Assembly: GCA_020720765.1 (NCBI GenBank)
Contig: DYOB01000002.1
Location: 11,039 to 75,038 of the forward strand
Reading direction: 5' to 3'
Length of the DNA: 64,000 nucleotides
Source: Borreliella garinii
GTDB taxonomy: Bacteria; Spirochaetota; Spirochaetia; JABEVK01
A program made the translations under genes and the position numbers. Shown in pieces: positions 1,992 through 48,151 of the stretch (positions are counted from its first letter, which is position 1; each line of letters starts with the position of its first letter). The notes under the pieces were generated by a model that was given only the letters and a program-made list of their open reading frames with translations, searched no databases and was not told the DNA's origin.

Positions 1992-3067
1992 TCGGATGGC
2001 CTCGAAGAATACCTGATCCGTGGATCGACAAGGGCGAGCAGGATGTCCGAGATAAGCATGCCAACAAGGATTAGAACGCTCGTGAACATGAGATTGGTCA
2101 CTACCAAATTGATATCTTCCTGGCGGACGGCTTCGTACATGAGGCGACCTAATCCGGGGTAGGAGAAAATGATTTCCAAAATGAGACTTCCCGAGAAAAG
2201 CCCGGCCAGGAGGTTGGAACTCGATGTAATAAAAGGGTTCATCGTGTTGCGGAAAGCGTGCGCGTACGTGATGCGTTTTTCAGAAACCCCCCTGGACCGA
2301 AGAGCTGTGATATAGGGCTGACCGAGCTGGTCCAGCATCGTGGCCCGAACCATGCGCATGGTGCCGCCGATACCGCCGATAAACGCTGCAAACAAGGGCA
2401 GAAATATATGGTGGAGGTAGCTGAAGGAAAAACCTACAGGGTTTTCGTTAAAGGGAAAAGAAGGGTAAGCGGTCACGGGGAAAAGTCCCGACCAGGAAGC
2501 GAAGAGCTGCAGCAGGATCAGCAGGAGCAGGGACGGGAATGCGTGAAAAAAGAGGCCGAAAAAACCAGCCACCATATCGACCCGGGTTCCAGCTTTTCTG
2601 GAAAGGGAAATGGCGACGGCAAAACTCGCCAGGGTAAGTATCACGAGACTAATTAGATTCAGAATAAGGCTATTGCGCATCCTGTCGGCCATCAGAAAAG
2701 CGACAGGAGCACGGTTGATAAGAGAACGGCCTAAGTCTCCCTGAATGACTCTCCCCAACCAGGCACCGTACTGTACCCAAAATGGTTTATCAAGTAAGAG
2801 AATAGCTTTATAGGAGGCTATAGCCTCCTCCGTATACTGGTTATCAGCCCTTCTGAAGTTGGAATCGGAGAACATTTGGCTCTTAACGTACGAATCCACG
2901 ATGTCTCCCGGCGCAAGGCTCATCAGGCCGAAGACCGCCAGCCCCAGCACAAGAAGCATGGTTACGATACCGAAGGAACGCTGCACCACAAAGGAAGCCA
3001 AGGGGTGCTTTTGCTTCCAGTGTAAAAGTAATCGGATGGGTTTTAAGAAAGTATCCTTTAGTGACAT
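1988..3067 (-). CDS. oppB: Oligopeptide ABC transporter permease, OppB/DppB-like.
   Basis: 359 aa with an N-terminal TM segment, a periplasmic loop and the conserved permease region. It sits between the substrate-binding protein gene and the OppC-like gene. Confidence 0.85.
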   Translation of the reverse strand: MSLKDTFLKPIRLLLHWKQKHPLASFVVQRSFGIVTMLLVLGLAVFGLMSLAPGDIVDSYVKSQMFSDSNFRRADNQYTEEAIASYKAILLLDKPFWVQYGAWLGRVIQGDLGRSLINRAPVAFLMADRMRNSLILNLISLVILTLASFAVAISLSRKAGTRVDMVAGFFGLFFHAFPSLLLLILLQLFASWSGLFPVTAYPSFPFNENPVGFSFSYLHHIFLPLFAAFIGGIGGTMRMVRATMLDQLGQPYITALRSRGVSEKRITYAHAFRNTMNPFITSSSNLLAGLFSGSLILEIIFSYPGLGRLMYEAVRQEDINLVVTNLMFTSVLILVGMLISDILLALVDPRIRYSSRPSE

Positions 3068-3068
3068 A

Positions 3069-4865: not shown

Positions 4866-4920
4866 ACAACCTCCTAGTAATACCATAGACAAAAATGTAA
4901 AAATACTGATCCTCAATATA

Positions 4921-22424: not shown

Positions 22425-23883
22425 AATTATGGAAGCCGTGCGTGGGATAGCTCAGGAAAAGGGAATTTCACTTGAATTGGTTCGACAAGTTATCAACGAA
22501 TTCATGAAAGCAGCGTATAAAAAAAGATTCGGCACAGATGAAAATGCAGAAGTTGAAGTTGATGACCTTACAGGTTCGGTGAAAATTCTTTCAAGAAAAG
22601 TCGTTGTCGATGACGATGACCTTTATGATCCGGTTTCGGAAATCGAGCTCAGTCAGGCTAAACTTACAAATGAAAATTCGAAGATCGGGGACTTTGTACT
22701 TATAGAAGTTGATACCAATGATTTTGACCGTATGGCGGTTTTCAGCGCCAAACAAAAGGCTAAACAGTTTCTCCGTGATATTCAAAAAGATACCTTGTAC
22801 TCAGAATTTAAAGACAAGGTGAATGAAATCATCATCGGTTACCACCGCAGGGAAAAAAATGGTACAATTTTTATCGATCTAGGAAAGACGGAAGGGGTTT
22901 TGCCTAAAAAGAACCAAAGTCCAAGGGAAGTTTACAGAGCTGGAGACAGGATTAAGACCCTCGTTCAGGAAGTTAAGAAAACCCCGCTTGGACTTCAGAT
23001 ACTTTTAACCCGCAGGGATCCTGAATTTGTAAAAAAACTTTTTGAGCTTGAAGTACCTGAAATCAATGAAGGGGTAGTACTCATTCAGAAAATTGTTCGG
23101 GAAGCGGGCTACAGGACTAAAATTGCTGTAAAATCTACAAAAGAAGACGTCGATCCCGTGGGTGCCTGCGTTGGGCTCAAAGGATCGCGAATTCAAAATA
23201 TCATGAAAGAACTCGAAGGAGAAAGGATTGATATTCTCCGCTATGATCCGGATCCCAAAAGCTATATCCAAAATGCGCTTTCTCCAGCTAAGGTTCTTCA
23301 AGTTATAGTACTGGATCAATCGAAAAAGAACGCACTCGCCATAGTCAGCGAATCAGATTTGAGTTTGGCCATCGGTAAAATGGGATCCAATGTTAAACTT
23401 GCCAATAGGCTTGTTGATTGGAACATCGATGTACGTACAGAGGAACAGTTCGCTGAAATGGACGTCGGACAAGAGTACCGGGCCGCTGCGGAAGGGTTGT
23501 TTATGGAAAATGAGGAAGAAAACCTTATTTCCAAGATTTCAGAACTCGAAGGAATCCCGGAGAGAGTAGTAGACATTCTTACGCAGAATGGTATTGTTCT
23601 TATTGAGAGCCTTATTAATGTTACTAAGGAAGACCTTGAAAAGATCAACGGTTTAACAGCCCAGGATGTTCAAGGCCTTATGCAGGTGCTTGAGGAGAAT
23701 GTAGAAATCAGCTACGAGGAAGGTGCGAACGAGGCGGCCGGCCTTGAGGAAGAAGCTGAGGAAGAAGACGAGTATCAGTGTCCCGAGTGTAATCACGCAG
23801 TTACTATCGGTATGACAAATTGTCCTAATTGCGGTGTTGGTTTGAGTTTTGAGTTTGGAGAAGAGGAAGAAGTCGAGGAATAA
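22417..23883 (+). CDS. nusA: Transcription termination/antitermination factor NusA, with an unusual acidic tail plus C-terminal Cys4 zinc ribbon.
   Basis: 488 aa. S1 and two KH domains (VDPVGACVGLKGSRIQNIMKEL), one HhH/AR-like repeat, then an acidic stretch and CPECNH...CPNCG. Confidence 0.9.
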   Translation: MTEIMEAVRGIAQEKGISLELVRQVINEFMKAAYKKRFGTDENAEVEVDDLTGSVKILSRKVVVDDDDLYDPVSEIELSQAKLTNENSKIGDFVLIEVDTNDFDRMAVFSAKQKAKQFLRDIQKDTLYSEFKDKVNEIIIGYHRREKNGTIFIDLGKTEGVLPKKNQSPREVYRAGDRIKTLVQEVKKTPLGLQILLTRRDPEFVKKLFELEVPEINEGVVLIQKIVREAGYRTKIAVKSTKEDVDPVGACVGLKGSRIQNIMKELEGERIDILRYDPDPKSYIQNALSPAKVLQVIVLDQSKKNALAIVSESDLSLAIGKMGSNVKLANRLVDWNIDVRTEEQFAEMDVGQEYRAAAEGLFMENEEENLISKISELEGIPERVVDILTQNGIVLIESLINVTKEDLEKINGLTAQDVQGLMQVLEENVEISYEEGANEAAGLEEEAEEEDEYQCPECNHAVTIGMTNCPNCGVGLSFEFGEEEEVEE

Positions 23884-23890
23884 TTCAATA

Positions 23891-26533
23891 ATGTCAGATA
23901 AAACAAATGCAGAACAGCCGACGTTAAACAACGACCCAGAGAAAAAAAAGGTCGTAGTTGTAAAGCCCAAGGTTGTTAAAAAAAAGGTTGTCGTTCATTC
24001 GCGGCCTACAGAAACTAAAGAGTCACCTCCGCAAGAAAAAGCACCTCAGGTTCATGCTCCTGAAACTCAAGAAAAGGAAGCAGTTGTCCAAGCCCTGCGT
24101 CCAGAATCTAAAACCATAAGGCCGTCACCGAGGGAGCCCAATCCTTTCGGCCCACCTGGAGGTCAGGAAAGCGGACCTCGTCCCATAAGGCCGTCACCGA
24201 GAGAAAACTACCAAAGGCCCGAATACGGCAGACCTCCCCAACAGGGCACTACAGGTGACAGCCGTTACCCACCCAGGGACAGGGGAGCGCCACCAAAACA
24301 AGGCGCTTACAGACCTGGCCCAGGTGGCCCCCGTCCTGCCGGTGATAGTGGTCACCCAAACCGCTATCCACCGCGTCAGGGTGATAGCGGCCCTGCATCT
24401 TTTAATAGAGCGAACCCAGGAGCATATAATAGGTCGGGACCTCCTTCCGGCCCCGGTGGATACAATCGTTCCGGTCCTGGTGCAGGCGGCGGGTACAATA
24501 GATCGGGACCTCCTTCAGGCCCTGGCGGGTACAATCGTTCCGGGCCTCCATCCGGACCGGGTTCACGGCCTTACGGTCCTAGACCGCCCCGTCCTAACGG
24601 TCCTGCTCCCACAGCACCTGGTGCGGATCAACCCAAAAAGTTCCGATCAAAGAAGAACAAATCGGTAGATAAAGAAAGAGCACTCACGAAAGAGAAGTAT
24701 GAAGAGAAAGAGAGAGTTGAAAAACTCAGTCATTTCCGGAGACAACAGGCACAGAAGGCAAACCCCATACCCAAGGAAATTGAAATCCTCGAGGTGATCA
24801 CCGTCGCCGAGCTCGCAAGAAAAATGAACCTCAAAGTCACCGATCTCATTACAAAACTCATGAAGATGGGGCTTATGGTCAGCATTAACCAACAGATTGA
24901 CCACGAAACCGCTGCGATTCTTGCTGCTGAATTCGGAACCGAAGTTAGGGTCATATCACTCTATGACGAAACTTTGATCGAAAGCGACGTTGAGAATCCC
25001 GACCGCGTCGTGCATCGTCCACCTATTGTTACAATTATGGGGCACGTAGACCATGGTAAAACCAAACTCCTCGATGCGATACGCAGTGCAAATGTTGCCG
25101 GCGGTGAACACGGGGGAATCACCCAGCATATCGGTGCTTACCAAGTCCGACACGCAAAAGGTTCCATAACGTTCCTGGATACACCGGGTCACGAGGCTTT
25201 TTCCATGATGAGGGCCCGTGGTGCACAAATCACGGATATTGTAGTACTCGTCGTGGCTGCAAACGATGGAGTTATGCCGCAAACTGTTGAAGCTATTCGT
25301 CACGCCCAGGACGCAAAGGTCCCCATCATTGTCGCTATTAATAAAATCGACCTTCCGGATTCTAACGTGGACCGTATCAAACAACAGCTCGCAGAGTTTA
25401 ATCTTTCACCAGAAGACTGGGGCGGTTCCACTCTTTATGTGGAAATCTCGGCACTTAAACGCACAGGTCTTGATACCCTTATCGATGTCATCCTTCTACA
25501 AGCCGAAGTCATGGAACTGACAGCCGATCCTGGAAGGCGCGCAGAGGGCAAGGTCCTCGAAAGCCGGATAGACCAGGGCAGGGGGACAATTTCTACGGTA
25601 CTTATCGAACACGGTACACTTAAAATCGGCGATCCCTTTGTGGGAGGTATTTTCCCTGGAAGGGTTCGAGCAATGTTTAATGACCTAGGACAGGCTATTA
25701 CCGAAGCCGGACCTTCTACACCCGTGGAAATCATGGGCTGTGAAGGTATTCCTAATGCCGGCGACCCGTTCCAAGTAACCGACTCCGATAAAGAGGCCCA
25801 TGAATACGCAGATAAGCGTCAGGAATTAAAACGTCAAGAAGAGGGGAAGAATGTGAAAAAAATCACCCTCTCCAACCTTTATGACACGATCCATGACGGA
25901 AATATCCAGGAGCTTAAGGTTATTATCAAAGGCGATACCCACGGGTCTGTTGAAGCCCTCAAGGGAGCTCTTACTAAACTCAGTACCTCTGAAATTCGCC
26001 TGAACGTGCTCCATTCGGCCGCAGGACCCATAGTGAGAGACGACGTTTACCTTGCGGCCGCTTCCCAAGCCATTATTATTGGATTTCACGTGAGACCCAG
26101 TACTGAAGCCCAGCAAGCTGCGGATCAGGAGAAGGTCGAGATAAGAAAGTACAATATTATCTACGACGCTGTTGAAGATATCCGGACAGCTATGGAAGGA
26201 CTATTAGCCCCGGACCTGAAAGAGGAAGCTACGGGAACCGCCGAGGTGCGTGAAACCTATAAAGTACCCAAAATTGGACTAATAGCAGGTTGCCACATCA
26301 CACGCGGTAAGGTGAAGAAAACTTCACAAGTACACGTTGTCCGTGACGGTATACAGATTCACACCGGTAAGCTGAGTTCCCTTCGACGTTTCAAAGACGA
26401 CGCGAAGGAAGTAGCTGAAGGTTACGACTGCGGTATCGGAATCGAAGATTTTCAAGATATTCAAAACGGAGATATCATCGAGGCTTTCGATGTGATAAAA
26501 ATCGCTAAGAAGTTAGAAAAGAGTGCTCCATGA
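23891..26533 (+). CDS. infB: Translation initiation factor IF-2.
   Basis: GTPase motifs ([21 protein letters not shown]) and a C-terminal IF2 beta-barrel. The N-terminus is a Pro/Gly/Arg-rich low-complexity region with tandem repeats. Started at MSDKTN at 23891; the ORF from 23849 overlaps the nusA tail. Confidence 0.95.
24425..24565 (+). repeat. Imperfect tandem repeat of about 33-36 bp, four copies, inside the infB 5' region. It encodes [12 protein letters not shown] units.
   Basis: The unit tacaatcgttccgg(g/t)cct...ggcgg(g/t) recurs head-to-tail. Separately, an 18-bp exact direct repeat cataaggccgtcaccgag occurs at 24115-24132 and again at 24184-24201, encoding IRPSPRE twice. Confidence 0.7.
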
Positions 26534-36349: not shown

Positions 36350-37801
36350 ATGGTACTCACTGGAATTTCAAGGATCCTCGGGTTTCTCCGAAACGCGGTC
36401 ACCGTGTGGATTTTTGGAGGTGGGAAAACCGCAGACGTTATAAATGGGGTGTTTTCTCTTCCTAATGGAATTCGGAAATTTCTAGCCGAAGGAAATCTCA
36501 GCCTCAGTTATTCTGCACTTTTCGCCAGACTGACGGAAGAAGAAAAAAATAAAAAAGCCGGGAACTTGGTTCTCCAGCAACTTCGTTGGGTTTTACCCTT
36601 AGCCTTTATTTTGCTCTTATTCGGCGGGTTTATTTCCTCTATTCTTCTTCCTTTCACCGACACGGCTCAAAGAAACCTATCTTCTATGATGTTGGGGCCA
36701 GCTTTACTCTATATCCCTTTTGCTGTAATCTCAAGTGTTCCAGCAGGCATCCTTACCGCCCAGGGAAAGAACCATCTACTCACTCTGGGTTCTCTAGTTT
36801 TTTCAGCAACTGTTATTGTTTCACTTTTTTTCGTAAAGGACGGCACACTGATTTACTGGGCTTGGTCTATCTCCTTTGGAGGTTTTCTACAGCTCGTTCT
36901 CCTATTAATCTTTACAAAAGCTTGGAAATGGAGGTTTTCCCTTCAAAGGAAAATGTCCTCCAAATCTGATCTTCCCGAATGGATTACCACTCTGCTTTTC
37001 CATCTTTCAGGTGTAATATTCTTTCAGATTTTCATAGCAATCCTCACCCAGGAAAAACCCGGTGATCTCGCTGCATTCACCAATGCTTTTACACTTCTTC
37101 AATTCCCCCTTGGGATATTTATAAATTCCTTGGTGATGGAAAGGTATTCACACCTTACTCAATCCCATACGTCTGAGAGAATTTTGGGTCTAACTATCAA
37201 CGGTTCTCTAACAATAATTAACTTCTCCATTGCCTTAATTATTTTTATTGTTTTCTTATCCCAAGATATCGTTCGATTACTTTTCGAACACGGAGAATTC
37301 AATATGTTACAAAGCACGAATACAGGCCAGGTTCTTTTTTGGCTTTCCTTGGGTATCCCGGGCTATGGTCTTACTTTACTTTTTCATCGGGTCTACACTT
37401 TGTGGGGAAAACCCAGGAAAGCCCTAGTTCTTGGATCTATCGGACAAGCGGTTCCAATGTTCCTGCTCTTTTTCCGTAACCCAGCGATAGTTTCGCTTAT
37501 TTGGGTAACAGGAGTTTCACTGACAGCTCTATTATTATTCTTCTTTGATAGAAAATTATTCCTACTATTTCAAGACAATATTAAGTTCTCACTTTTTTCT
37601 CTCGCAAAAAGGTTTATCTTCCACATCAGCTTGTTTGCTGTGCTTTTGATATTTTCACAATTCTTTCCACAGGATATCAACATTTTACCCCGTTTTTTAG
37701 CCGGAGCCGGGGTTTGGGCAGTCAGTTGGGTGATTATGAGTTATATTTTGAATGTAAGGGAGATTCGTTTTTGGGAAAAATCCGATATATCTTTTTCTTA
37801 A
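36350..37801 (+). CDS. murJ: Lipid II flippase MurJ (MviN).
   Basis: 483-aa polytopic membrane protein whose N-terminus matches the MurJ consensus (SRILGFLRNAV...ADVINGVFSLPNGIRKFLAEGNLSLSYSALFARL). Confidence 0.8.
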   Translation: MVLTGISRILGFLRNAVTVWIFGGGKTADVINGVFSLPNGIRKFLAEGNLSLSYSALFARLTEEEKNKKAGNLVLQQLRWVLPLAFILLLFGGFISSILLPFTDTAQRNLSSMMLGPALLYIPFAVISSVPAGILTAQGKNHLLTLGSLVFSATVIVSLFFVKDGTLIYWAWSISFGGFLQLVLLLIFTKAWKWRFSLQRKMSSKSDLPEWITTLLFHLSGVIFFQIFIAILTQEKPGDLAAFTNAFTLLQFPLGIFINSLVMERYSHLTQSHTSERILGLTINGSLTIINFSIALIIFIVFLSQDIVRLLFEHGEFNMLQSTNTGQVLFWLSLGIPGYGLTLLFHRVYTLWGKPRKALVLGSIGQAVPMFLLFFRNPAIVSLIWVTGVSLTALLLFFFDRKLFLLFQDNIKFSLFSLAKRFIFHISLFAVLLIFSQFFPQDINILPRFLAGAGVWAVSWVIMSYILNVREIRFWEKSDISFS

Positions 37802-39087
37802 TTTCAATAACAACATTTGCTCAAACTCGTGAAAAAACACTCGAAGTCTTGCAGTTTGGACTCGAACCACAAATCCTGGAAACTTTAAACTCACTTGCTC
37901 AAATGAAGGACGACAGTTTTCAGGACCAGGTTTTTTTACTCTTATCCCAAGACTACCACAGAAACATTCAAGAGGCCGCTCTAAGGTATTTTTCGGAAAT
38001 CCGTTCACCCAGGGCAGCCGAGGCCTTGCCGGGAATGATTGAAGACCTTGAAACATGGCAAATAGGTCAACTTCTTACCTTTACCAATTATCTCGGGGAA
38101 TTGAAAATTGTGACGCTGAACCAGGAACTCGTCAAGAAGCTTGATTCCGATAACCTTGCCATGAATGCAGCCATCATCCGCCTCTTCGGAAAGCTGAATG
38201 CCGTCGAATTTTCTGATAAACTTTTAGCTTTACTAGCTGACCCTTTAGAACCTCCCGAATTGACACCCGATTTAATAACCTCCTTGGGTCAATTGCACCA
38301 TACACCTGCGTCCGAAGAAATTATTCGAATCATGGAAGACAGCGCAACGTCTTACGCCTTAAAAGCTTTATGTCTAACCGCTCTTGCTGAAATTGGTGGA
38401 ACCAATGCAGAAACAGCAGTTAGGGAAAGACTGAGCGATGATAACGCTTTGGTTAAGGCTTCTGCCATCAGAGCTGCTGCCAAGATTCCTTCCTTATCCT
38501 CCAACGCTGATATCTTTATACGTGCCTTGCGAGATTCTACAGTGGGTGTAAGGATAGCTGCAGCGGAAGCTCTAGCGGAAAAACCTTCGGCTTCGGCCTT
38601 GCCCATGCTTCTTTTTAGAGCCCAGAATGATCCTGACGCAAAAGTTCAGGCTGCGGCACTCAAAGCGATTCTCGCTCAGGACCGGGGTGAATGGGAAAAA
38701 CTAATTCTTAATACTATTGAAAACCAGAAAAGTAATTCAGAGCTTTGGCACTCTTCGGTTAAACTTGCCCTGGATAACAGGTTAGGTTCGGCTATTCCAA
38801 AGTTCAGGGCCTTCTTAATATCTGAGGCGTCCATGACCAACTCGCCCCTTGTAGGGTATCTAGCAGGACAAATTTCTTTAACTACCTGGGAAGGTCCCGA
38901 TGAGTTGTATCCCGAGTTTTTTACGATGAACAACCCGTCGGCTCAAATACTTATTTTAAGAATAATTCAAAGAAGGCGGCTAGTAGGTATGAGTGACCAG
39001 ATGAAAGAGTGGGCAAGGGGGACTAGGTCCTCGCAAGTCCGGATCTTTATCGATAACCTTCTAAAGGAATGGACACCAGTCCCTTAA
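37771..39087 (+). CDS. Secreted HEAT-repeat protein (PBS-lyase-type HEAT repeats).
   Basis: Multiple HEAT-like repeats (VRIAAAEALAEKPSASALPMLL..., VKASAIRAAAKIP, VQAAALKAIL). It most likely starts at TTG 37771, giving the signal peptide MGKIRYIFFLISITTFAQT. The longer ORF from 37714 overlaps murJ. Confidence 0.6.
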   Translation: MGKIRYIFFLISITTFAQTREKTLEVLQFGLEPQILETLNSLAQMKDDSFQDQVFLLLSQDYHRNIQEAALRYFSEIRSPRAAEALPGMIEDLETWQIGQLLTFTNYLGELKIVTLNQELVKKLDSDNLAMNAAIIRLFGKLNAVEFSDKLLALLADPLEPPELTPDLITSLGQLHHTPASEEIIRIMEDSATSYALKALCLTALAEIGGTNAETAVRERLSDDNALVKASAIRAAAKIPSLSSNADIFIRALRDSTVGVRIAAAEALAEKPSASALPMLLFRAQNDPDAKVQAAALKAILAQDRGEWEKLILNTIENQKSNSELWHSSVKLALDNRLGSAIPKFRAFLISEASMTNSPLVGYLAGQISLTTWEGPDELYPEFFTMNNPSAQILILRIIQRRRLVGMSDQMKEWARGTRSSQVRIFIDNLLKEWTPVP

Positions 39088-40682
39088 ACTCGGGTTTTAC
39101 CAAGTTTTTGAAGGAAGAGTTTGAACTTATCAGCTTCTGAAACGTATCTCTTCATTAAGATGTGAAGAGATTTTTTCTGGTGTTGGTTCCAAATGATCTC
39201 TTCTCCTTCGCAGATGAAAGCTTGGTCGCCAAAAGAACAGCCTTCTACCAAGGGCTTAAACCAAAGTTTACCGTTTTCAAAATAGAATTCTCCCAGTGCA
39301 GGAGTATTTTGGATCCGTATGGGTACACCTTTTATATCACCTAAAACTTTCCTTTCCTGGTCATGAAATTTAAACAGGCCACGTCCGCCGGCTGTGTTTT
39401 GAAAGAGAAAATCATCCGTCCATAGTTCTAAATAATAAACATTCTCTTCGGATCCCAGGTTCGCAGGTGCAGAACGTGAGACAGGTGCGACTGTCTGTCT
39501 TTTTTCTATTCGTGCTGATGGTTGTTTTGAAATCGAGGTTGCTACACTTGAGGTTCTTGTCGCGTTGGTTGTGCTCGCATTTCTTGCTGTACTTGCCGTT
39601 CTTTGGTTTTCTATTCGTTTTCTTGCTAGGGCTGGAGATACATAATGACCGGGTTGGGCACGGTGTTGAACAAGGCGGACAAAGAGGAAGATCATCAACG
39701 CAACTAAGAGAATTGCGACAATAATTAAAATGACAATCTGTGGAGAAATCGAGCCACCGTCTTCTCCAGTATAATTCAAAGGAAGTCTCACTTTATCTGG
39801 GAAAGCTCTGAAATTATCCTCAAAACCCAGCTCCACAAGCAAATCTAGATTTCCAGGTACTGCAGGTGCGTTTTTCCAGTATAAGGAAAGTGTGACGCTT
39901 TTAGAGGAATTCGGCGAAACAGAAATAGTTGTCGGATTATCGAGGACGGAATCACCGTTAATCTTCACAGAATTGAGTTTAAGCACCATTCCATCACCGT
40001 TGAAATTTTCCACCTTTATGGGAAAAGTTATATTTCGGCCCTGTATACCCAAGTCAGAAGGGAAGGTAATTCTAGGGCTACCGAGAAACCTGTTCGCAAA
40101 CTCGGGAGAATTTTCGAAAGCGGTTACAGGAAGTCGGGAAGACCAAAGTTGATTGAGGTCAAACTCAGGTTGTGCACCATCAAAAGGAATAAGAGCAATT
40201 TTAAAACTCCAACGATTTCTGTTGGCTTGCGTTAGAAAACGTTCAAGGGAATCCTTCCATTTTTTCTCTTCAGAACCTCCTGGACTCTTGCCATCCATAA
40301 TAAGAACGATGACCTTACTTTTATCATTTGCAAGCGATTGTATATAATCGAAGGTAAAGTTCATCGTTTTGGGTAGATCGGGAAGTACCGTTTCTGCTGG
40401 AACGCGGTTTAAATTGATAAGAAAATTTTCTATTTCATTCTTATCAAAAACTATCTGACGGTACATCTGGCGCGGATCATTTGCCATCCCGATAAGGTGA
40501 AACTCATCAAGTTTTTGACTCTTTAGATAATCTTTCAAAATAACGTTCAGAAAGACACTCATAATATTATTTCTTGAACTTTCAAGAATCGGCCCGAGGT
40601 CAAGAACCACGATAAAATCTTTAGGTTCCGCAAAAGCTGGGAGAACGTTGAGTAGTGCCAGTAACAGAAATCCCTTTTTCAT
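39084..40682 (-). CDS. Bitopic membrane protein with a signal peptide, a periplasmic degenerate VWA-like domain, one TM helix, a Ser/Thr/Ala-rich linker and a cytoplasmic C-terminal domain that weakly resembles FHA.
   Basis: 532 aa. Signal MKKGFLLLALLNVLPAFA; DFIVVLDLGPILESS...KVIVLIMDGKSPGG (a VWA-like beta-alpha pattern without a canonical MIDAS site); TM helix IVILIIVAILLVALMIFLFVRLV; low-complexity linker RTASTARNASTTNATRTSSVATS. Its start overlaps the greA stop by 4 nt. Confidence 0.55.
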   Translation of the reverse strand: MKKGFLLLALLNVLPAFAEPKDFIVVLDLGPILESSRNNIMSVFLNVILKDYLKSQKLDEFHLIGMANDPRQMYRQIVFDKNEIENFLINLNRVPAETVLPDLPKTMNFTFDYIQSLANDKSKVIVLIMDGKSPGGSEEKKWKDSLERFLTQANRNRWSFKIALIPFDGAQPEFDLNQLWSSRLPVTAFENSPEFANRFLGSPRITFPSDLGIQGRNITFPIKVENFNGDGMVLKLNSVKINGDSVLDNPTTISVSPNSSKSVTLSLYWKNAPAVPGNLDLLVELGFEDNFRAFPDKVRLPLNYTGEDGGSISPQIVILIIVAILLVALMIFLFVRLVQHRAQPGHYVSPALARKRIENQRTASTARNASTTNATRTSSVATSISKQPSARIEKRQTVAPVSRSAPANLGSEENVYYLELWTDDFLFQNTAGGRGLFKFHDQERKVLGDIKGVPIRIQNTPALGEFYFENGKLWFKPLVEGCSFGDQAFICEGEEIIWNQHQKKSLHILMKRYVSEADKFKLFLQKLGKTRV

Positions 40683-43378
40683 AAGAATTCCGCCTTTTCA
40701 ATTTTTATAACTTGATAGTCACAAAGTCTTTCATTAATGGTAAATTTGAGTTCATCACCTTTTTTATTACCGAGAAGTTTATCGCCAAGGGGTGATAAGT
40801 AAGAAATGATATTGTCTTCAGGTTTTGATTCCCAGGGACCTAAAATGATAAATATCTCTTCCTGGTTGGTGAGTTTATTAAGTAGAACTGCACGAACTCC
40901 GAAAACTATTTTTTCCATATCAACATCTGCCGGGTCAATTACGGTTGCTGTTTCCAAATCACGGCTGAGCTGGCTGACAGTTGAATTGAGGAAACCTTGC
41001 TTTTCTTTTGCGGCGTGGTATTCAGCGTTTTCTTTAAGATCTCCCAAGGCCATAGCTTCACCGATTTCCTTGGAATTCTGTGGAATTTCAACATCCACAA
41101 GGTGTGAAAGCTCCTTGCTCTTTTTATTATACATGGCACGTGTCGTCAGTAAGCCTTTTCTGCTTGCTATGCTTCGTGTCGAACTGTCTTCACGTTGAAT
41201 AAGATGGGGGAATTTCAGACCGACTTTCTGACGGAGAAGGTTGGTTTCGTTCGCTGGTATTTCTTTAATATCCTGAACTAAGGTAAAAATACGCAAGACA
41301 CTTTCCTCGGAGGCTTCATCTAGGTAGGTTTCCATCAATTTGTCTTTCAAGAGGATGATGAGAATATTTTTATGTTGTCGTTTGGCGCTTGTCAGTTCTT
41401 TTTTATTCGCAATTTCCCTTCCAACCTGTTCAAGAATGTTTAAAAGGTTGATGATGACCTTCTCCTTTGAAATGGAGTAGGTTTCCCAGGAAACATTTTC
41501 CATTAAATACCGGGCGAGCCATATAAGTGCTTCTTTTTGTTCCCTGAACCTATCCATGATATTTCGGAAAAGTTTCACAACGAAGGTTTTCTTCCCGTTG
41601 CTCAAAAGTTCTTCGATCATACTTTTAGCGGGTGCAATCATGATTAGACGTATATAGTACTCTGGCCAATTCTCAAGTTCTTTCCTGATATTGGAAAGGA
41701 AGAGCCTTTTTATCTCGGTATTTTTCATATTTCGGTAAATGTCTTCGAGATTCTCGATTTCAGCAAAATATTCTTTAAAGGTCTTATTGATAGGAAGGTT
41801 TAAAAAGGCATATTTCTTTGAAAGCCTTTCAAGGATTAAAAAAGCACTTAAGACTTCGTCGTTAACTTTGTTGAGTTTTAGATAGCCGACAAAGCTGTTA
41901 AAAATCTCGGAAAAAAAGTCGGTTTCAACTTTATCGTCCTCAACCATCTCTTCAAGAATCTCGATGCGTTTGTAGAAATCCTTTTCAACTCTAAACTTGT
42001 TGTAGGCTTTCTCTTCAAAGGTAACAGGTTGGCTCCGCACCATAAAGAAGTCGGGTTTGTCTGGGTCAACGGCGTAATCCGGACTTTTCTTCAGAAGGGT
42101 CCTGGCGTGCGAACTCCAGTTGGTCCACTCTGAGGTCGTCAAAATTGAAGGAGTCAATGCCGCACGTATGATCTTAAAGTCGGCATTATTCCCGAAGGAG
42201 CGTATAATGGTTTTTAACGCCCAATCGTGGTCTTCCTTGATCTTCTTTTTCAAGTCATCTTTTTTTGTGACGGCAATTTTTACACGTATATCCTCGGTCG
42301 AAAGGTTCTGCAGAGCTTCAACAGCCATTTTTTGAGCCATAGTATGCCCTCGCCTTTTCTCGAAGTCGATAACGAATTCCTGTTCTTTTTCGCGTATTTC
42401 AGAAATTCTTCCGACACCCCAAGTATTATGAAATACAAAGTTACCTTTAGCAAAGGCCAGGTGCTTTTGAAAATCCCGCATAGCTTCATCCATACTTCGG
42501 AAGGACTGCGAAAGACCTGAAAGGCGGATGTAGTCTTCGATTTTAGGGTTATCATGGTATTTCTTTTTTAGGATTTCTATGATCTCCCTTCTCACAAAGG
42601 CAGTCTTCCCTTCGTGTGTCTGCATTCTCATTAAGATTTCCAGTGCGTTATCAAAAGCTTGATTTTTCAAAGCTACCGGGTAAAGCCCTTCTAATAGGAC
42701 TAAGGATCTTTCCTTATCCCACCCTAATGTTTTACTCACTTTTGTTTCTATCTGCGCAAAATATTCGTATTCGTTAGGAATAAGGTCTAGAAGTTTGTTC
42801 CAAACATCCAAGAGCCTTGCAAAGTTTTTCTTTAAAAGAAAACGATGGATAGCTTTTTTGTAAAATTCAGTGGATTTGGAAGGATCACCGGTTTTATCGT
42901 ATTTTTGGGCTAGCAGAAGAACGGTTTCGGCGTCTTCCATATCAACGCGTACAAGCCTCTCTTCAAGTTCGGTAACTTTTTCTTCATTACCTTCCTGGCG
43001 GTAAAGGTCTACAAGAGTTTTAAGGGCAAACTTATTTTCACCTGAGTCAAGAATATTTTTACACAAATGTTCAACAAGACTTGTTTTCTGGTTTTGACTG
43101 AACAGCGATACAAGTTTTATTAGCTGGGAATCGTCGAGACTCTGGCGTTTTAAACTGATCATCCCCGAAAAATACATCGCAGCTATGGTGCTTTTGTTTT
43201 CCTGGAGGTGTTCTTCACAGAGTTGAAAAACCTCGGATACATTGTCACTGTTGAGAATTTCCTGGAAGATGGATTCTAATTCTTTTAGGTGTCCCAAGTT
43301 GTAAGTGGCAATGGTGGCCCTGGTCCATTTTTCCTCGTGAAGCAGTCCGTTTATTTTATCCAACACTGAATCCGCCAT
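40679..43378 (-). CDS. greA: Long spirochete-type transcription elongation factor GreA: an N-terminal domain of about 740 aa with unknown function, followed by a canonical C-terminal GreA domain.
   Basis: 899 aa. The C-terminus carries the GreA coiled-coil and FKBP-like motifs (EAMALGDLKENAEYHAAKEKQGFLNSTVSQL...VIDP; KIVFGVRAVLL...GDELKF...YQVIKIE). The N-terminal 700+ aa is helical/TPR-like and I recognise no family in it. Confidence 0.8.
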   Translation of the reverse strand: MADSVLDKINGLLHEEKWTRATIATYNLGHLKELESIFQEILNSDNVSEVFQLCEEHLQENKSTIAAMYFSGMISLKRQSLDDSQLIKLVSLFSQNQKTSLVEHLCKNILDSGENKFALKTLVDLYRQEGNEEKVTELEERLVRVDMEDAETVLLLAQKYDKTGDPSKSTEFYKKAIHRFLLKKNFARLLDVWNKLLDLIPNEYEYFAQIETKVSKTLGWDKERSLVLLEGLYPVALKNQAFDNALEILMRMQTHEGKTAFVRREIIEILKKKYHDNPKIEDYIRLSGLSQSFRSMDEAMRDFQKHLAFAKGNFVFHNTWGVGRISEIREKEQEFVIDFEKRRGHTMAQKMAVEALQNLSTEDIRVKIAVTKKDDLKKKIKEDHDWALKTIIRSFGNNADFKIIRAALTPSILTTSEWTNWSSHARTLLKKSPDYAVDPDKPDFFMVRSQPVTFEEKAYNKFRVEKDFYKRIEILEEMVEDDKVETDFFSEIFNSFVGYLKLNKVNDEVLSAFLILERLSKKYAFLNLPINKTFKEYFAEIENLEDIYRNMKNTEIKRLFLSNIRKELENWPEYYIRLIMIAPAKSMIEELLSNGKKTFVVKLFRNIMDRFREQKEALIWLARYLMENVSWETYSISKEKVIINLLNILEQVGREIANKKELTSAKRQHKNILIILLKDKLMETYLDEASEESVLRIFTLVQDIKEIPANETNLLRQKVGLKFPHLIQREDSSTRSIASRKGLLTTRAMYNKKSKELSHLVDVEIPQNSKEIGEAMALGDLKENAEYHAAKEKQGFLNSTVSQLSRDLETATVIDPADVDMEKIVFGVRAVLLNKLTNQEEIFIILGPWESKPEDNIISYLSPLGDKLLGNKKGDELKFTINERLCDYQVIKIEKAEFL

Positions 43379-43387
43379 GTCTTTCTC

Positions 43388-44356
43388 CTAGTTTTTTGTA
43401 TAGAGCTGATAAATGTCAGGCTCAATCATTTTCATATTCAACAAAATCTCTTCCCACTTGCTCCGGTCTTCTTTTGTGTCACGATAATGATCCAGAAGCC
43501 AGAAATAACGGTTCAACAACCGTGGCAGTACTAAACTTTCGACAGATCTGTAGGCTGTCCATTCCAGTTTGAGGTTTGTGACCTCCTGTTTTAATCTGGA
43601 AATTTCCAAAGGCTTGAGGTCTCTTCGTGTTTGGAATAGCCCGAGAAGAACACCGTAAACCGGAATCCATTCCTTGAGCTGATCCTGTTTGAATTTTTTC
43701 TCCGTCAAATAATTCCTGATGGTTGAGATCATCGGTGACAGTAAAAAATCCAAAGCTATTTTTTGCGCTCCTATAAAAAAAGCTTCGCGAAAAAGCAATT
43801 TTGCCGGTTCGGTTTGAGACATCATATCGAGACAGTCCGCTGTTTCTGATAAAAATTCTGCGTCCTCCTTGAACGAGTCCTCCGTCGTACTTTCAAAAAT
43901 CTGAAGAGCCTTTTTATAGTCTCCCATCTGTTTTTGGCAACGCCCAATATTCATCAAAATCAGAAACTTTTCCTTTGGATCTGACTCGTTGGCTAAAGCC
44001 TCTTGATAATCCTCGAGGGCTTTTCCAAAAATAAAATACCTTAAGTGGTAAAGATTCTCCTCAAAATCAGCTCCCAACCTCGGAAGATAGCGGTGACGGA
44101 AACCCGCGTATTCCTGAAAGAGGAAATCCGCCCTTTCTTTCGGGCTACGAATAAGGTCCCATTCTTCCATCTTGGGTTTCCAATAGACAGCGCTATGCAG
44201 GGCTGAAAGGGCCAGGAGGTTGTCAAAATCCTGACTACGGAGTTCAGCCGCCAGACGCTCAGCCTCAGGAAAATCACCCGAACGGAACGCTTCGTAAATT
44301 GCCCTTATGTGCGGCCTCCTGACATTTTCGAGAATACCACTTTTTATTATAACCAT
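43388..44356 (-). CDS. Hypothetical TPR-like helical protein, the first gene of the greA operon.
   Basis: 322-aa helical repeat protein. It lies 10 bp upstream of greA on the same strand and diverges from rpe. Confidence 0.5.
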   Translation of the reverse strand: MVIIKSGILENVRRPHIRAIYEAFRSGDFPEAERLAAELRSQDFDNLLALSALHSAVYWKPKMEEWDLIRSPKERADFLFQEYAGFRHRYLPRLGADFEENLYHLRYFIFGKALEDYQEALANESDPKEKFLILMNIGRCQKQMGDYKKALQIFESTTEDSFKEDAEFLSETADCLDMMSQTEPAKLLFREAFFIGAQKIALDFLLSPMISTIRNYLTEKKFKQDQLKEWIPVYGVLLGLFQTRRDLKPLEISRLKQEVTNLKLEWTAYRSVESLVLPRLLNRYFWLLDHYRDTKEDRSKWEEILLNMKMIEPDIYQLYTKN

Positions 44357-44443
44357 TGATTAAATAAGGTCAATCACGGAAAAACACAGGGAACACTTGA
44401 CGAGAAGGATGATTTAACAGAATAATTTGTCCATGGTTGGCCT

Positions 44444-45088
44444 ATGCTTTTAATCGCACCTTCAGTATTATCTGCGGATTTCTCCAACGTAGAAAAAGCT
44501 ATTCAAAAAATATCGGAGTCGGGAGCGGATCTTATCCATTACGATGTGATGGATGGGGATTTTGTACCCCCCATCACATTCGGGAGTCAGTTTATTGAAC
44601 AGGCTCAAAAAAAGACCAAACTTGACGCAGATGTTCATTTGATGATCTCAAAGCCTTGGAAACATTTTGCCTCCTTTGCCAAATCCGGTGCCAAATACCT
44701 GACTTTTCATTACGAGGCGGCTGTTCATCACCACCGTCACTTGCAGGAAATCCAGGCTTTAGGAATCAAGGCTGGAATATCTATCGTTCCATCAACCCCG
44801 GTATCCGTACTTTCAGAACTCTTACCGTTTTTAGACCTCATTCTTATCATGTCGGTGAATCCAGGTTATGGTGGACAGAGTTTTCTTCCATTCTGCCTAA
44901 GAAAAATACAATATTTGGCTGAAAATAAAGAAAAAAACGGGTATTCTTATCTTATCAGCGTAGATGGTGGAATCAATGAAAAAACTGCTGTGGAGGCCCG
45001 GCTTGCCGGTGCCGATATACTAGTGACAGGGTCGAGTTTTTTTAACTCGGATCATCCGGCAGATTTAATAAGCAGGTTGAGAAAATGA
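44444..45088 (+). CDS. rpe: Ribulose-phosphate 3-epimerase.
   Basis: 214 aa with Rpe motifs (IAPSVLSADF, IHYDVMDGDFVP, VDGGIN). Confidence 0.9.
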   Translation: MLLIAPSVLSADFSNVEKAIQKISESGADLIHYDVMDGDFVPPITFGSQFIEQAQKKTKLDADVHLMISKPWKHFASFAKSGAKYLTFHYEAAVHHHRHLQEIQALGIKAGISIVPSTPVSVLSELLPFLDLILIMSVNPGYGGQSFLPFCLRKIQYLAENKEKNGYSYLISVDGGINEKTAVEARLAGADILVTGSSFFNSDHPADLISRLRK

Positions 45089-46005
45089 AATATAGACTGA
45101 GTTTAGCGGTATTTTTTTTGGGTTTCAGCACTTTTGCTCAAACAAATTCTTCCTTTGATTTGGGGCAGAGATTGTACTCCCAATCCGATTTTACCGGAGC
45201 AAGAAATGTTTTTCAAAACATACTCAATACCCCTAGCCAATCCTTGATCCATGGTTCGTCGCTCCTTTGGCTTGCAAAAACAGAAATGGCCCTTAGGTCA
45301 TTCGACCAGGCTTCGCAGGCACTCGAGACTTTTCTTAGTAAGTATCCCAGGCACCCCTCTTATAATGAAGCCCTTTATGAAAAAGGCCGTTTATTCTTTT
45401 ACCAGGATGAGTTTGAAAATTCGATCTTGATCCTCGATGAGTTCCTAAAAACCCAGCCAGGACCCGAACTGGGGTCGAATGCCCTTTTCTGGATGGGTGA
45501 AGATAGTTTCCAATTGGGCAGATGGGAAGAATCACAGGTTTTCTTCCGAAGGGTTATCGAGTTTTATCCTTCGAGCTATAAAGTGGAAGCCTCGAGGTAC
45601 AGGCTATCCATGATTGAGCTGAAAATCCGTGAAGAAGAACTCTTAAGACTCCTGAAGTGGAGTCATGAAGAAATTCTCAATGCCCTTGACGAATTCAGGA
45701 GAAGGGAGCGCGCTTATCAGCAAGCTATCCAAGCTTATCAAAAACGTATCCTGGAACTCGAGAGCGGGTCGGATCAATCCGTACGTATCAGACAGCTTGA
45801 AGAAGAACTAAGACTTGCAAGGCTCAATGCCTCCCCAAGTGGTCAAAGGATTCTGTCTCCAGCTACTCCGGCAACGACCCAGACCCAACCAACTGCTGCT
45901 CCAAATCAAACTCTGCTCAGAAGCCTTCAAGAACTCAGGGCTCAGGCGGAAGAACTGAAGAAAATATATGATGAATGGGAGGCTATCCATGCCGACGGCC
46001 GTTAA
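45085..46005 (+). CDS. Secreted TPR-repeat protein with a C-terminal coiled coil, similar to CpoB/YbgF.
   Basis: 306 aa with a signal peptide, TPR repeats (ALYEKGRLFFYQDEFENSILILDEFLK..., ALFWMGEDSFQLGRWEESQVFFRRVIEFYP) and a Gln/Glu/Arg-rich coiled-coil tail. Confidence 0.55.
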   Translation: MKYRLSLAVFFLGFSTFAQTNSSFDLGQRLYSQSDFTGARNVFQNILNTPSQSLIHGSSLLWLAKTEMALRSFDQASQALETFLSKYPRHPSYNEALYEKGRLFFYQDEFENSILILDEFLKTQPGPELGSNALFWMGEDSFQLGRWEESQVFFRRVIEFYPSSYKVEASRYRLSMIELKIREEELLRLLKWSHEEILNALDEFRRRERAYQQAIQAYQKRILELESGSDQSVRIRQLEEELRLARLNASPSGQRILSPATPATTQTQPTAAPNQTLLRSLQELRAQAEELKKIYDEWEAIHADGR

Positions 46006-47029
46006 ACTTCTGGTTTTTCTTTTACTCTCCATAAACGCTTTTTCCCTGGACTTTGTAAGGGGTAAAATGAAAGTCGCTGTAGACGAAAATAAAGGACTTT
46101 TCAGTATTTATTACACGGAGGAAATTAACCCTCCCAGATGGGTTCCGCTTATTTGGGCAAGGGACCCCAGTACAAGCCTGATTACTTTACGCATCAATAA
46201 CAGGACGATGCCCTTGGCTGTTGGTTCCCAGTTTCAAATGACGGTAAACCAGGAAACCAACGGTGTGCTTATTGCCTGGAAAAATGTCGACATCGAGGTC
46301 AATCAACGTTTTGAATTTCTCACATCCAGGAACAGTTCTGTTTCAGACGGTGTCAGACTTTCCCTTGAGTTTCGAAATCTTAAAGAAGAACCCATGAACC
46401 TCGACGTGAGGTTTCTTATGGATACCTATTTAGGCGAACAGAAGAACCATTTTATGGTGAATAATGTTCCGCAAAATAAAGAGTGGAGGATCATCGGACG
46501 TACATCAACTTCATGGATAAGCCCGAGGTCGGAAGAAAACCCCACCGTGGGTCTTATGGTTTGGCTTGGTGATGGGGCGACAACGCCGACACGGACAATA
46601 TTCGCCAACTGGAAAAGACTTAAAGATTCGCCCTGGGACCCTTCGTTTAGCGAAGGGAGGGATTTCAATAATATTCCCTATTCTAATAACGATTCTGCAG
46701 CAAGTATTTTCTATGAAGGTTTGATTATTCCTTCCAAGTCTTCACAAACCTTAATTATTGCCATGTCAAACCTCACTGCGGGAAGTCTTATCGGAGCAAA
46801 GATCGGTACTGAATCGGTCTTCCAGGATATGTTGGAAAGCACTGTCGAGGCAGGAAACAATGTTTCTGATCTTTTGATTCTCCTCAGGCGCGATAGGGAA
46901 GTGGTTTCGGACCTACTAAGAAAAATTGACCAGGGAATACTGAATATCAGGGATTTTTCGGAAGAAGATTTAAGAATGCTGAATACGATATTTCAGCAGC
47001 TCGAACAGAGAAAAGACGCCTTCCAGTGA
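45968..47029 (+). CDS. Hypothetical secreted protein.
   Basis: 353 aa with a signal peptide (MPTAVKLLVFLLLSINAFS); I recognise no family. It overlaps the upstream gene end, so the start may be the Met at 45989. Confidence 0.5.
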   Translation: MMNGRLSMPTAVKLLVFLLLSINAFSLDFVRGKMKVAVDENKGLFSIYYTEEINPPRWVPLIWARDPSTSLITLRINNRTMPLAVGSQFQMTVNQETNGVLIAWKNVDIEVNQRFEFLTSRNSSVSDGVRLSLEFRNLKEEPMNLDVRFLMDTYLGEQKNHFMVNNVPQNKEWRIIGRTSTSWISPRSEENPTVGLMVWLGDGATTPTRTIFANWKRLKDSPWDPSFSEGRDFNNIPYSNNDSAASIFYEGLIIPSKSSQTLIIAMSNLTAGSLIGAKIGTESVFQDMLESTVEAGNNVSDLLILLRRDREVVSDLLRKIDQGILNIRDFSEEDLRMLNTIFQQLEQRKDAFQ

Positions 47030-47041
47030 CCGGAAACGTCT

Positions 47042-48151
47042 ATGCCGACACCTAAAACAACCTCTCTTAAGAAAGCTCGTCTACTCTACCATAAAAAAAA
47101 ATATTCCGAAGTTATTTCCCTTTTGGAAAAAGATATCTTTCAATACTATGAAGATGTGGAGTACTTTTTAGTCCTGGGTTCTTCCTTTTTTGCTACAGGT
47201 GATTTATCCGGAGCCGACGCTTTTTTTCAGCGTATCAATAAAATTGATCAAAAAAACATAGAAGCTTTACTGGGGTTGTGTCTTATTTCCACTATTCGTG
47301 GTGACGTACCAAAGGCGGTTAAAAAAGCCTTGGAAGTCCTGGATATTTTACCTCACGAACCCAGAGCTTCTAAGATCCTGAATATTCTCAGAAAAAAAAT
47401 CTCAAAAGACGAGTTAAGGGCTTGGACCCATTCGCGTGATTTCTTAAAATTTTATCCCAAAGTTCCCGGAAAACAACCACCATATAAAGCTTTATTTTTA
47501 ACGACATTCGGTTTGATTCTTGTTTCCACTTCAATTCTTTTGTTCCCATGGGTTTCATCGACTTTTTTTTCTGGACCCAAACCGGAAAACCTCAGACCGG
47601 GAATTAAAGAACGCGGAATCGAGGGTATGACTGAACTTATAAAATTCAGCGGCGGCTTCACTGAAATTTTAAGGGTGGACGAAATCCAAGCACTTTTTAA
47701 GGAGATTCAGGATCTCTTGCAGGAGTACCGCGATAACGAGGCCAGAAAACTTATGAATAGGCTTTTGAGATCCAACGCTTCAGATTCTGTTAAGGAACAG
47801 GTTTATGCCCTTTTCGAACTCCTTCAGAAACCTGATTTTACAAGTAAGATTTTCCCTTATACACTAAAAGAGATTTCAGACGACCCCGGACTTTACCAAG
47901 GTGTTTTTGTCCGTTGGCAGGGGAGTGTTGCCAATTTGGAAGTCCTGGAAGAGAATATCATCTTTGATTTGCTCGTGGGTTATCACGAGGGGAGGATCCT
48001 CGAGGGTGTAGCTAAGGCTGAATTGGGTTTTGCAGTTCGTGTCGATAACGGTGACCCCGTCGATGTCTTGGCACAAATAAAAGTTTCCGAGACTGGTTGG
48101 AACCTAGTAGTTCAAAGTATCCACGTTATGGGCGTGCGGAGAAGTCCTTGA
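47042..48151 (+). CDS. Hypothetical TPR-containing membrane protein.
   Basis: 369 aa with N-terminal TPR-like repeats, a central TM helix (ALFLTTFGLILVSTSILLFPWV) and a C-terminal domain. The gene contains A9, A8 and T8 homopolymer tracts. Confidence 0.5.
   Translation: MPTPKTTSLKKARLLYHKKKYSEVISLLEKDIFQYYEDVEYFLVLGSSFFATGDLSGADAFFQRINKIDQKNIEALLGLCLISTIRGDVPKAVKKALEVLDILPHEPRASKILNILRKKISKDELRAWTHSRDFLKFYPKVPGKQPPYKALFLTTFGLILVSTSILLFPWVSSTFFSGPKPENLRPGIKERGIEGMTELIKFSGGFTEILRVDEIQALFKEIQDLLQEYRDNEARKLMNRLLRSNASDSVKEQVYALFELLQKPDFTSKIFPYTLKEISDDPGLYQGVFVRWQGSVANLEVLEENIIFDLLVGYHEGRILEGVAKAELGFAVRVDNGDPVDVLAQIKVSETGWNLVVQSIHVMGVRRSP

Follow-up and report, generated by a model that had tools for sequence, protein, structure and literature searches.

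Long GreA of a spirochete: a predicted scaffold with a candidate RNA polymerase-interacting Tudor barrel, a TPR partner, and a clade-specific envelope protein

As a rule, Gre factors are small proteins which exchange freely and compete for the RNA polymerase (RNAP) secondary channel, canonical GreA and GreB (~160 amino acids [aa]) being composed of a coiled coil with an acidic tip and a globular domain. The GreA of Borrelia is ~900 aa in length, and long GreA proteins of this kind add an N-terminal scaffold of 740 aa to the same two Gre parts. A second fusion, the Chlamydia type (NF004969, “transcript cleavage factor/unknown domain fusion protein,” 718 positions), shares with long GreA the middle region, referred to here as the GRAD module, and the Gre domains, but is devoid of the N-terminal tetratricopeptide repeat (TPR)-like region of ~170 to 250 aa. 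Conflict systems which combine TPR, GreA/B-C, and PIN components (PMC8195603) differ from long GreA in architecture. The locus described here lies within a stretch of 64,000 nucleotides (nt) of Borreliella garinii DNA (contig DYOB01000002.1 of assembly GCA_020720765.1, positions 11,039 to 75,038), hereafter the window, and comprises three minus-strand genes which encode, in order, a TPR protein of 322 aa, a long GreA of 899 aa, and a bitopic protein of 532 aa with a VWA fold and a single transmembrane (TM) helix (VWA/TM protein). It is best explained as a standard long GreA which is predicted to be co-transcribed with a conserved upstream TPR partner and a clade-specific downstream envelope protein, and we propose that the N-terminal part of this long GreA harbors a putative RNAP-interaction domain.

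The long GreA open reading frame (ORF) (positions 40679 to 43378; all coordinates refer to the minus strand of the window unless stated otherwise) was matched by NF011309 (PRK14720), the curated long-GreA equivalog model, with 870.6 bits against a cutoff of 714, residues 5 to 898 being aligned to profile positions 5 to 905/906; relative to the spirochete proteins which this model describes, the length and domain order are the same and no structural difference was apparent. NF004969 matched residues 241 to 880 (profile positions 72 to 703) with 179 bits, below its cutoff of 697, while the short-GreA equivalog models all scored under their cutoffs. A first-pass annotation of the DNA had recognized a C-terminal GreA, and this assignment is upheld for 155 residues by PF03449, PF01272, TIGR01462 (149.5 bits against a cutoff of 139), and the tip motif. 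The Gre coiled-coil domain occupies residues 745 to 813 (40940 to 41146; PF03449, E value of 7.4e-23, 81 bits against a cutoff of 24.5) and the C-terminal globular, FKBP-like domain residues 822 to 894 (40697 to 40915; PF01272, E value of 2.5e-16, 59.9 bits against a cutoff of 26.9). The tip motif GDLKENAEY (residues 779 to 787), which is almost invariant as GDLxENAEY across 47 homologs, contains the acidic tip residues D780 and E783, which we take to be the counterparts of D41 and E44 of Escherichia coli GreA. Judged from its sequence, this C-terminal part, in which the coiled coil with D780 and E783 is joined to the globular domain, is predicted to be a catalytically competent Gre factor.

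Homologs of the 899-aa protein numbered 738 in a large protein collection at an E value of ≤1e-5, and all 120 homologs among the matches listed are of ~880 to 917 aa and carry PF27167 (HTH_GRAD), PF27371 (GRAD_C), PF03449, and PF01272; named sources include Spirochaeta, Gracilinema, Breznakiella, Treponema, and uncultured Spirochaetia. The same four families are assigned to P0001, which is 100% identical to the long GreA, and the closest relative found, at 60% identity, derives from a metagenome-assembled genome of an uncultured member of the Spirochaetia. A metagenome scan, which was dominated by the generic ENAEY motif, yielded eight loci. Because the ORF is continuous and full-length homologs are numerous, the protein represents a genuine long GreA fusion, as had been assumed at first reading, and a missed stop codon or a fusion created by annotation error is ruled out, given conservation of the ORF in hundreds of full-length homologs. 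The 899-aa protein almost certainly belongs to the known and catalogued long-GreA family and is not a new kind of protein. A literature search on the GRAD module, long GreA, spirochete and chlamydial GreA, and BB0132/BB0133 retrieved no relevant paper; the N-terminal domain, which the first-pass annotation called uncharacterized, is so only insofar as no paper on the GRAD module was found, since the region is covered by NF011309 and by PF27167 and PF27371.

The architecture of these preceding 740 residues was assessed by means of an AlphaFold2 (AF2) model of residues 255 to 745, which was built on 48 sequences and attained a mean predicted local distance difference test score (pLDDT) of 87.9, whereas residues 1 to 260 were placed by sequence matches. 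The region is best explained, on the basis of the model, as a four-part scaffold rather than an enzyme, its parts being a TPR-like region, a Tudor barrel, a winged helix, and a solenoid. The first part, an alpha-helical region at residues 1 to 260 (42599 to 43378), is delineated by weak TPR-type matches at residues 42 to 261 and 126 to 178, with TPR families being matched in this region in 24 to 37 of the 48 homologs. Following the barrel, which is considered below, residues 364 to 447 (42038 to 42289) were modeled as helices and a beta-hairpin and form a predicted winged-helix segment, at which TFA2_Winged_2 matched weakly in 38 of the 48 homologs (best E value of 2e-5). Residues 454 to 731 (41186 to 42019) are predicted to form an all-alpha repeat, or alpha-solenoid, with pLDDT values mostly above 90, for which, as for the bulk of the model, Foldseek returned only nonsignificant alpha-solenoid matches in the PDB. 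The winged-helix segment and the solenoid probably correspond to HTH_GRAD and GRAD_C, respectively, for both of which (PF27167 and PF27371) the matches are precomputed ones. The stretch immediately before the Gre domain has a pLDDT below 50, and residues 732 to 744 are read as a flexible linker between scaffold and Gre part. When the GRAD region and the VWA/TM protein were searched against PDB sequences with phmmer, only spurious apolipoprotein matches, or none, were obtained.

The remaining part is predicted to be a five-stranded, Tudor-like beta-barrel at residues 309 to 359 (42302 to 42454), assigned from the AF2 model, Foldseek, and sub-threshold Pfam matches, whose strands were modeled at fragment residues 60 to 105, or ~314 to 359 in full-length numbering. 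Foldseek aligned the barrel to the Tudor domain of Mycobacterium smegmatis UvrD1 (9dqs) with a probability of 1.00, TM-scores (template modeling) of 0.67 to 0.74, a root mean square deviation of 2.3 to 2.7 Å, and 29 to 30% identity over 52 to 53 residues. CarD_TRCF_RID (PF02559) and PcrA_UvrD_tudor (PF21196) gave sub-threshold matches in 31 and 25 of the 48 homologs, respectively, and always at the barrel. Furthermore, in a search of all PDB sequences with a 71-position profile built from the segment, Tudor domains of UvrD or PcrA accounted for four of the seven hits (7egt_B, 5dma, 1qhh, and 9dqs), the top match being the isolated UvrD Tudor domain 7egt_B (E value of 0.013 over 43 columns). 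The long GreA barrel, therefore, has described counterparts in PcrA/UvrD (PF21196; 5dma, 7egt, and 9dqs) and in the RNAP-interaction domain of CarD and Mfd (PF02559), with which it shares the predicted fold, the signature G-x-x-V-x-H-x-x-W-G-x-G-x-I, and equivalents of PcrA H681 and W684. The barrel of long GreA differs in being internal, located between the TPR and winged-helix parts, and in having a Gre factor as its fusion partner in place of a helicase or translocase.

PcrA interacts with RNAP through its Tudor domain, which resembles the RNAP-interaction domain of Mfd (Sanders et al., PMC5397179), and each of the substitutions H681A, W684A, K712A, and L714A strongly lowers RNAP binding by PcrA (PMC5397179). 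These four positions align, in what is a marginal alignment, to H317, W320, H345, and M347 of the long GreA. H317 and W320 are invariant in 48/48 long GreA proteins, and HMM-based counts across 126 representatives of the superfamily revealed that 117 retain the His, 104 have an aromatic side chain where the Trp is located, and each of the 126 has a hydrophobic one where PcrA has L714. It is, therefore, considered likely, and with good confidence, that the barrel at residues 309 to 359 is homologous to the RNAP-interaction Tudor domains of PcrA, UvrD, CarD, and Mfd; from this analogy, we infer that long GreA may bind RNAP through it.

Several points weigh against this assignment. The Foldseek E values for the Tudor match are 0.2 to 0.3, and folds of the small SH3/Tudor barrel type are widespread. 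All of the Tudor sequence matches are below curated thresholds (CarD_TRCF_RID, 15.6 bits against 23; PcrA_UvrD_tudor, 12.5 bits against 23.9), and the equivalent of K712 is His, not Lys. Moreover, docking of the PcrA Tudor domain takes place on a beta insert of RNAP which is lineage specific (PMC8318588); as spirochete RNAP may be devoid of this insert, the docking site is not simply transferable to long GreA. The low scores would also suit a scaffold which recruits clients, for example through chaperone-like TPR and solenoid surfaces, and makes no contact with RNAP, its barrel being a generic SH3/Tudor fold for another ligand such as a nucleic acid or peptide; most of the region does indeed resemble generic alpha-solenoids alone. 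We regard such a client-recruiting scaffold as unlikely, given that over half of the PDB sequence hits of the barrel profile are UvrD/PcrA Tudor domains, that H317 and W320, which align to residues required by PcrA for RNAP binding, are conserved, and that fusions of the module to a factor of the RNAP secondary channel recur.

Returning to a barrel which contacts RNAP, we propose that the Gre part of the long GreA would insert into the secondary channel and stimulate cleavage of backtracked RNA, as its sequence suggests, while the Tudor barrel would dock on the RNAP beta subunit in the manner of its helicase and CarD counterparts. Such a two-point attachment would be expected to keep the Gre domain near the secondary channel, and the solenoid and TPR surfaces of the long GreA may bind the separately encoded TPR partner. 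Taken as a whole, this tethering mechanism, in which a Gre cleavage factor is held on RNAP at two points together with a TPR partner, appears somewhat more plausible than not. If true, a Tudor-anchored Gre factor would alter competition for the secondary channel in spirochetes and chlamydiae, among which are major pathogens, and a testable function would be assigned to a 740-residue region of which no description was found in the literature. The forms of the module without a Gre domain, and the TPR partner which is dedicated to it across phyla, provide experimental handles for this purpose.

Such forms were apparent from an exhaustive search in which residues 255 to 745 were compared with 1.84 billion representatives and 747 clusters were retrieved. 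Proteins of ~900 aa combine the TPR-like region, GRAD, and Gre; a chlamydia-like class of ~730 aa harbors GRAD from approximately residue 95, followed by Gre; and a Gre-less class, consisting of ~10 proteins of 721 to 740 aa (such as P0192, P0211, P0241, P0253, and P0266) and one of 877 aa (P0136), is composed of TPR and GRAD. Among 110 representatives of at least 600 aa, the Tudor segment was detected in 109 and Gre in 93. The GRAD module thus appears, as far as its sequence distribution indicates, to be autonomous, in that it exists without a Gre domain. Nor is the Gre fusion limited to spirochetes and chlamydiae, since a long GreA whose Tudor/GRAD/Gre organization is the same is encoded on a clearly non-spirochete contig with a G+C content of 69% (L011, ~2890 to 5554), where neither a TPR partner nor a VWA/TM gene is adjacent.

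The TPR partner of the window (positions 43388 to 44356; 322-aa ORF), a companion of GRAD-module proteins, had been labeled a TPR protein from the outset, a label which holds through a single TPR_1 repeat (residues 133 to 155) whose score of 27.9 bits barely meets the cutoff of 27.8. A TPR protein of ~330 aa is encoded immediately upstream, and on the same strand, of the Gre-less GRAD genes in both of the Gre-less neighborhoods examined, with a gap of 17 nt in L012 (GRAD gene at 4001 to 6220) and an overlap of 4 nt in L016 (GRAD gene at 2175 to 4397). The L012 protein, whose neighbors are of planctomycete type (PSCyt2, PSD1, and DUF1501), is a full-length homolog of the window's TPR partner (BLASTP E value of 1e-16), and a profile of TPR-partner orthologs retrieved the partners in L012, L014, L016, and L019 with E values of 8e-39 to 2.5e-64. 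The partner also precedes the long GreA gene in L019 (1-nt gap) and in L014, where one gene intervenes. On the basis of these sequence relationships, the pairing which is conserved across phyla is that of the ~320-aa TPR partner with a GRAD protein, with or without Gre, and does not involve the VWA/TM protein. Speaking against a fixed pairing, L011, L013, L015, L020, and L021 have no adjacent TPR partner; as some long-GreA loci, therefore, do without it, the linkage is not obligatory. A candidate origin of the partner as a paralog of the TPR region at the N terminus of GreA itself found no support, the hhalign result (probability of 49% over 62 columns) reflecting generic TPR similarity.

The first-pass annotation had further suggested that the three-gene arrangement be sought in relatives of the window. 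It was found in one spirochete clade, in which the order TPR, long GreA, and VWA/TM is kept on the same strand in 12/12 loci (the window, L001 to L009, L017, and L018) of 34 to 66% G+C, but it does not extend further, the VWA/TM gene being absent beside the GRAD or long-GreA gene in 9/9 more distant loci (L011 to L016 and L019 to L021). The single Chlamydia-type locus sampled, L015, likewise lacks both the TPR partner and the VWA neighbor. Within the clade, the long GreA proteins of the 11 other loci are 37 to 60% identical to that of the window, the TPR partner is present in every triad locus with sufficient flank, and the junctions between the GreA and VWA/TM genes range from −4 to ~70 nt, ATGA overlaps included. 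The VWA/TM protein is predicted to be co-expressed with GreA in this clade.

The VWA/TM protein (positions 39084 to 40682; 532-aa ORF) was analyzed by means of an AF2 model (pLDDT of 70.8), Foldseek, and an alignment of orthologs. It is predicted to consist of a signal peptide, a VWA domain, an immunoglobulin (Ig)-like sandwich, a TM helix, a disordered linker of ~70 residues, and a beta-rich domain of ~100 residues with a terminal helix. The bitopic topology proposed previously agrees with both sequence and model, which indicate a signal peptide and one TM helix at residues 314 to 341 (39660 to 39743), the hydrophobic run IVILIIVAILLVALMIFLF being followed by basic residues. As regards the periplasmic VWA-like domain (residues 21 to 206; 40065 to 40622), the fold was substantiated, whereas the Pfam score and the metal ion-dependent adhesion site (MIDAS) motif were not as expected of a VWA domain. 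Foldseek comparisons of the full model with the PDB and BFVD were dominated by VWA proteins, with 246 PDB matches at an E value of ≤0.001, the best of which, to ANTXR2 (E value of 3e-11, probability of 1.0), spans both the VWA domain and the Ig-like beta-sandwich (residues 217 to 304; 39771 to 40034; modeled strands). ANTXR2/CMG2 displays the same order of VWA, Ig-like, and single TM elements, although at 17% identity the likeness is one of architectural analogy, the MIDAS motif being absent from the VWA/TM protein and the tails being unrelated. VWA_2 matched the window's protein at 14.6 bits (E value of 0.053), under the cutoff of 27, while its distant positional orthologs do carry Pfam VWA or VWA_2. 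Similarly, the DxSxS motif of the MIDAS is replaced by DLGPI in the window's protein and its close relatives (40607 to 40621; region of residues 21 to 25) but is retained as DSSRS, DNSVS, or DTSSS in distant orthologs (L002, L003, P0127, and P0128), which suggests that metal-dependent ligand binding has been lost in the window's sub-clade.

The cytoplasmic beta-rich domain and terminal helix (residues 414 to 526; 39105 to 39443), defined by modeled strands and kept in 10/10 orthologs, had been described as FHA-like. No FHA family of Pfam (for example, PF00498 or PF16697) matched any of the 10 orthologous tails at an E value of ≤10, and no FHA structure was matched when the tail was compared with PDB sequences; hhalign against the verified FHA domain of GarA (2kfu_A, residues 55 to 149) gave a probability of 0.4% and an E value of 0.14, and the Arg, Ser, and His residues which bind phosphothreonine have no conserved counterparts at the aligned positions. 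The “FHA-like” designation of the tail is, as judged by these comparisons, without sequence support.

This result bears directly on a model which elaborates the membrane-tethered signaling input suggested in the first-pass annotation and according to which the VWA/TM protein would sense the periplasm and its tail would bind or sequester the long GreA, either directly or via the TPR partner, so that the state of the envelope would act on transcript cleavage and anti-arrest through a membrane tether resembling an anti-sigma system. The constancy of the triad across 12 loci of widely differing G+C content, its short or overlapping junctions, and the retention of the cytoplasmic domain in all orthologs are in keeping with such a tether. 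So is the finding that all eight placeable homologs retrieved from the VWA/TM side, including two of 23 to 25% identity, lie in the triad, no other context being seen for the family in a word-limited search which returned eight proteins and to which a profile search added none. At L013, L020, and L021, moreover, the recA-rpe / GreA / MurJ/TGT-LptFG backbone is kept while the TPR, VWA/TM, and HEAT-repeat genes are all missing; the accessory genes are, therefore, present or absent together. Nonetheless, the tail bears no signal of FHA or of any other signaling domain, the VWA/TM gene is absent from the nine more distant loci, and the protein has evolved at a much higher rate than GreA (in one and the same relative, 37% identity as opposed to 60%), with loss of the MIDAS in the window's sub-clade. 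The clade neighborhood is, in addition, syntenic throughout, with a divergent rpe, a convergent HEAT-repeat gene, MurJ, and TGT, and adjacency alone is, for this reason, weak evidence of function. The proposed signaling input through an FHA-like tail is, consequently, not supported, and we consider the membrane tether in its general form distinctly unlikely, both as regards binding of GreA by the tail and as regards its consequence for anti-arrest. Functional coupling of any kind between the VWA/TM protein and GreA is judged improbable, and membrane signaling is speculative, clade-restricted operon linkage being the one positive line of evidence for it.

The extended synteny would also be accounted for if the VWA/TM protein, perhaps together with the putatively periplasmic HEAT-repeat protein, had an envelope role unrelated to transcription and merely shared the greA transcript by inheritance. 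Its resemblance, in the VWA, Ig-like, and TM elements, to extracellular proteins with adhesion and receptor roles, such as ANTXR2, the broad conservation of flanking housekeeping genes at the same loci, the position of the HEAT gene after the VWA/TM gene in nine loci, and the absence of the VWA/TM gene outside the clade are all compatible with inherited synteny. Less readily reconciled with it are the tight or overlapping junctions, which hold across wide divergence, the confinement of the eight proteins of the word-limited search to a single context, and the loss of the VWA/TM gene together with the TPR partner at L013, L020, and L021, and this explanation is considered rather unlikely. A more elaborate reading would have GRAD as an autonomous platform for docking on RNAP, accompanied by its own TPR partner in several phyla, Gre having been captured in spirochetes and one clade having added a VWA/TM receptor whose tail would retain the GreA-TPR complex at the membrane or set it free; although very improbable, it would, if true, link the state of the envelope to the rescue of arrested transcription.

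The HEAT-repeat gene itself (37714 to 39087, plus strand) encodes a protein of ~450 aa with a signal-peptide-like N terminus and ends 4 nt inside the 3′ end of the VWA/TM gene. It accompanies the triad in the window, L001 to L003, L005, L006, L009, L017, and L018, and its product and the VWA protein may belong to one envelope module.

With regard to the layout of the locus, the three minus-strand ORFs of 322, 899, and 532 aa were confirmed at the positions given above and are, as judged from their sequence and spacing, an operon-like unit. The TPR gene does lie upstream of greA as first described, with a spacing of 9 nt (43379 to 43387) rather than 10 bp between its stop codon and the greA ATG, and an AGGAG Shine-Dalgarno sequence, read from the DNA, spans that stop codon. 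The 4-nt overlap which had been noted between greA and the downstream gene is correct, the greA stop and the VWA/TM start codon sharing the ATGA at 40679 to 40682; the same overlap occurs in L001, and this arrangement suggests translational coupling. Upstream, in the divergent region between rpe and the TPR gene, the best sigma-70-like promoter match (44346 to 44373; TTGACC and TATAAT separated by 16 nt, 11/12 positions) is a consensus match only, and its −10 hexamer is located within the initial codons of the TPR ORF as predicted (ATG at 44356). This promoter match is either a chance one, or translation of the TPR protein actually begins further downstream. No second Gre factor was found in the 64-kb window, and no rRNA, tRNA, or Rfam RNA was matched across it.

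On the opposite strand, divergent from the operon, rpe is followed by three consecutive genes (45085 to 48151, plus strand) which encode a YfiO/BamD-like TPR lipoprotein, a 353-aa protein without a Pfam match, and a 369-aa TPR protein, and this trio is conserved along with the locus in L001, L002, and L006. Elsewhere in the window, the segments at 1 to 2000 and 24001 to 26000 exhibit a G+C content of 0.51 to 0.52, relative to a window mean of 0.43, and a strong positive AT skew, and a large ORF of 894 aa is located at 23849 to 26533.

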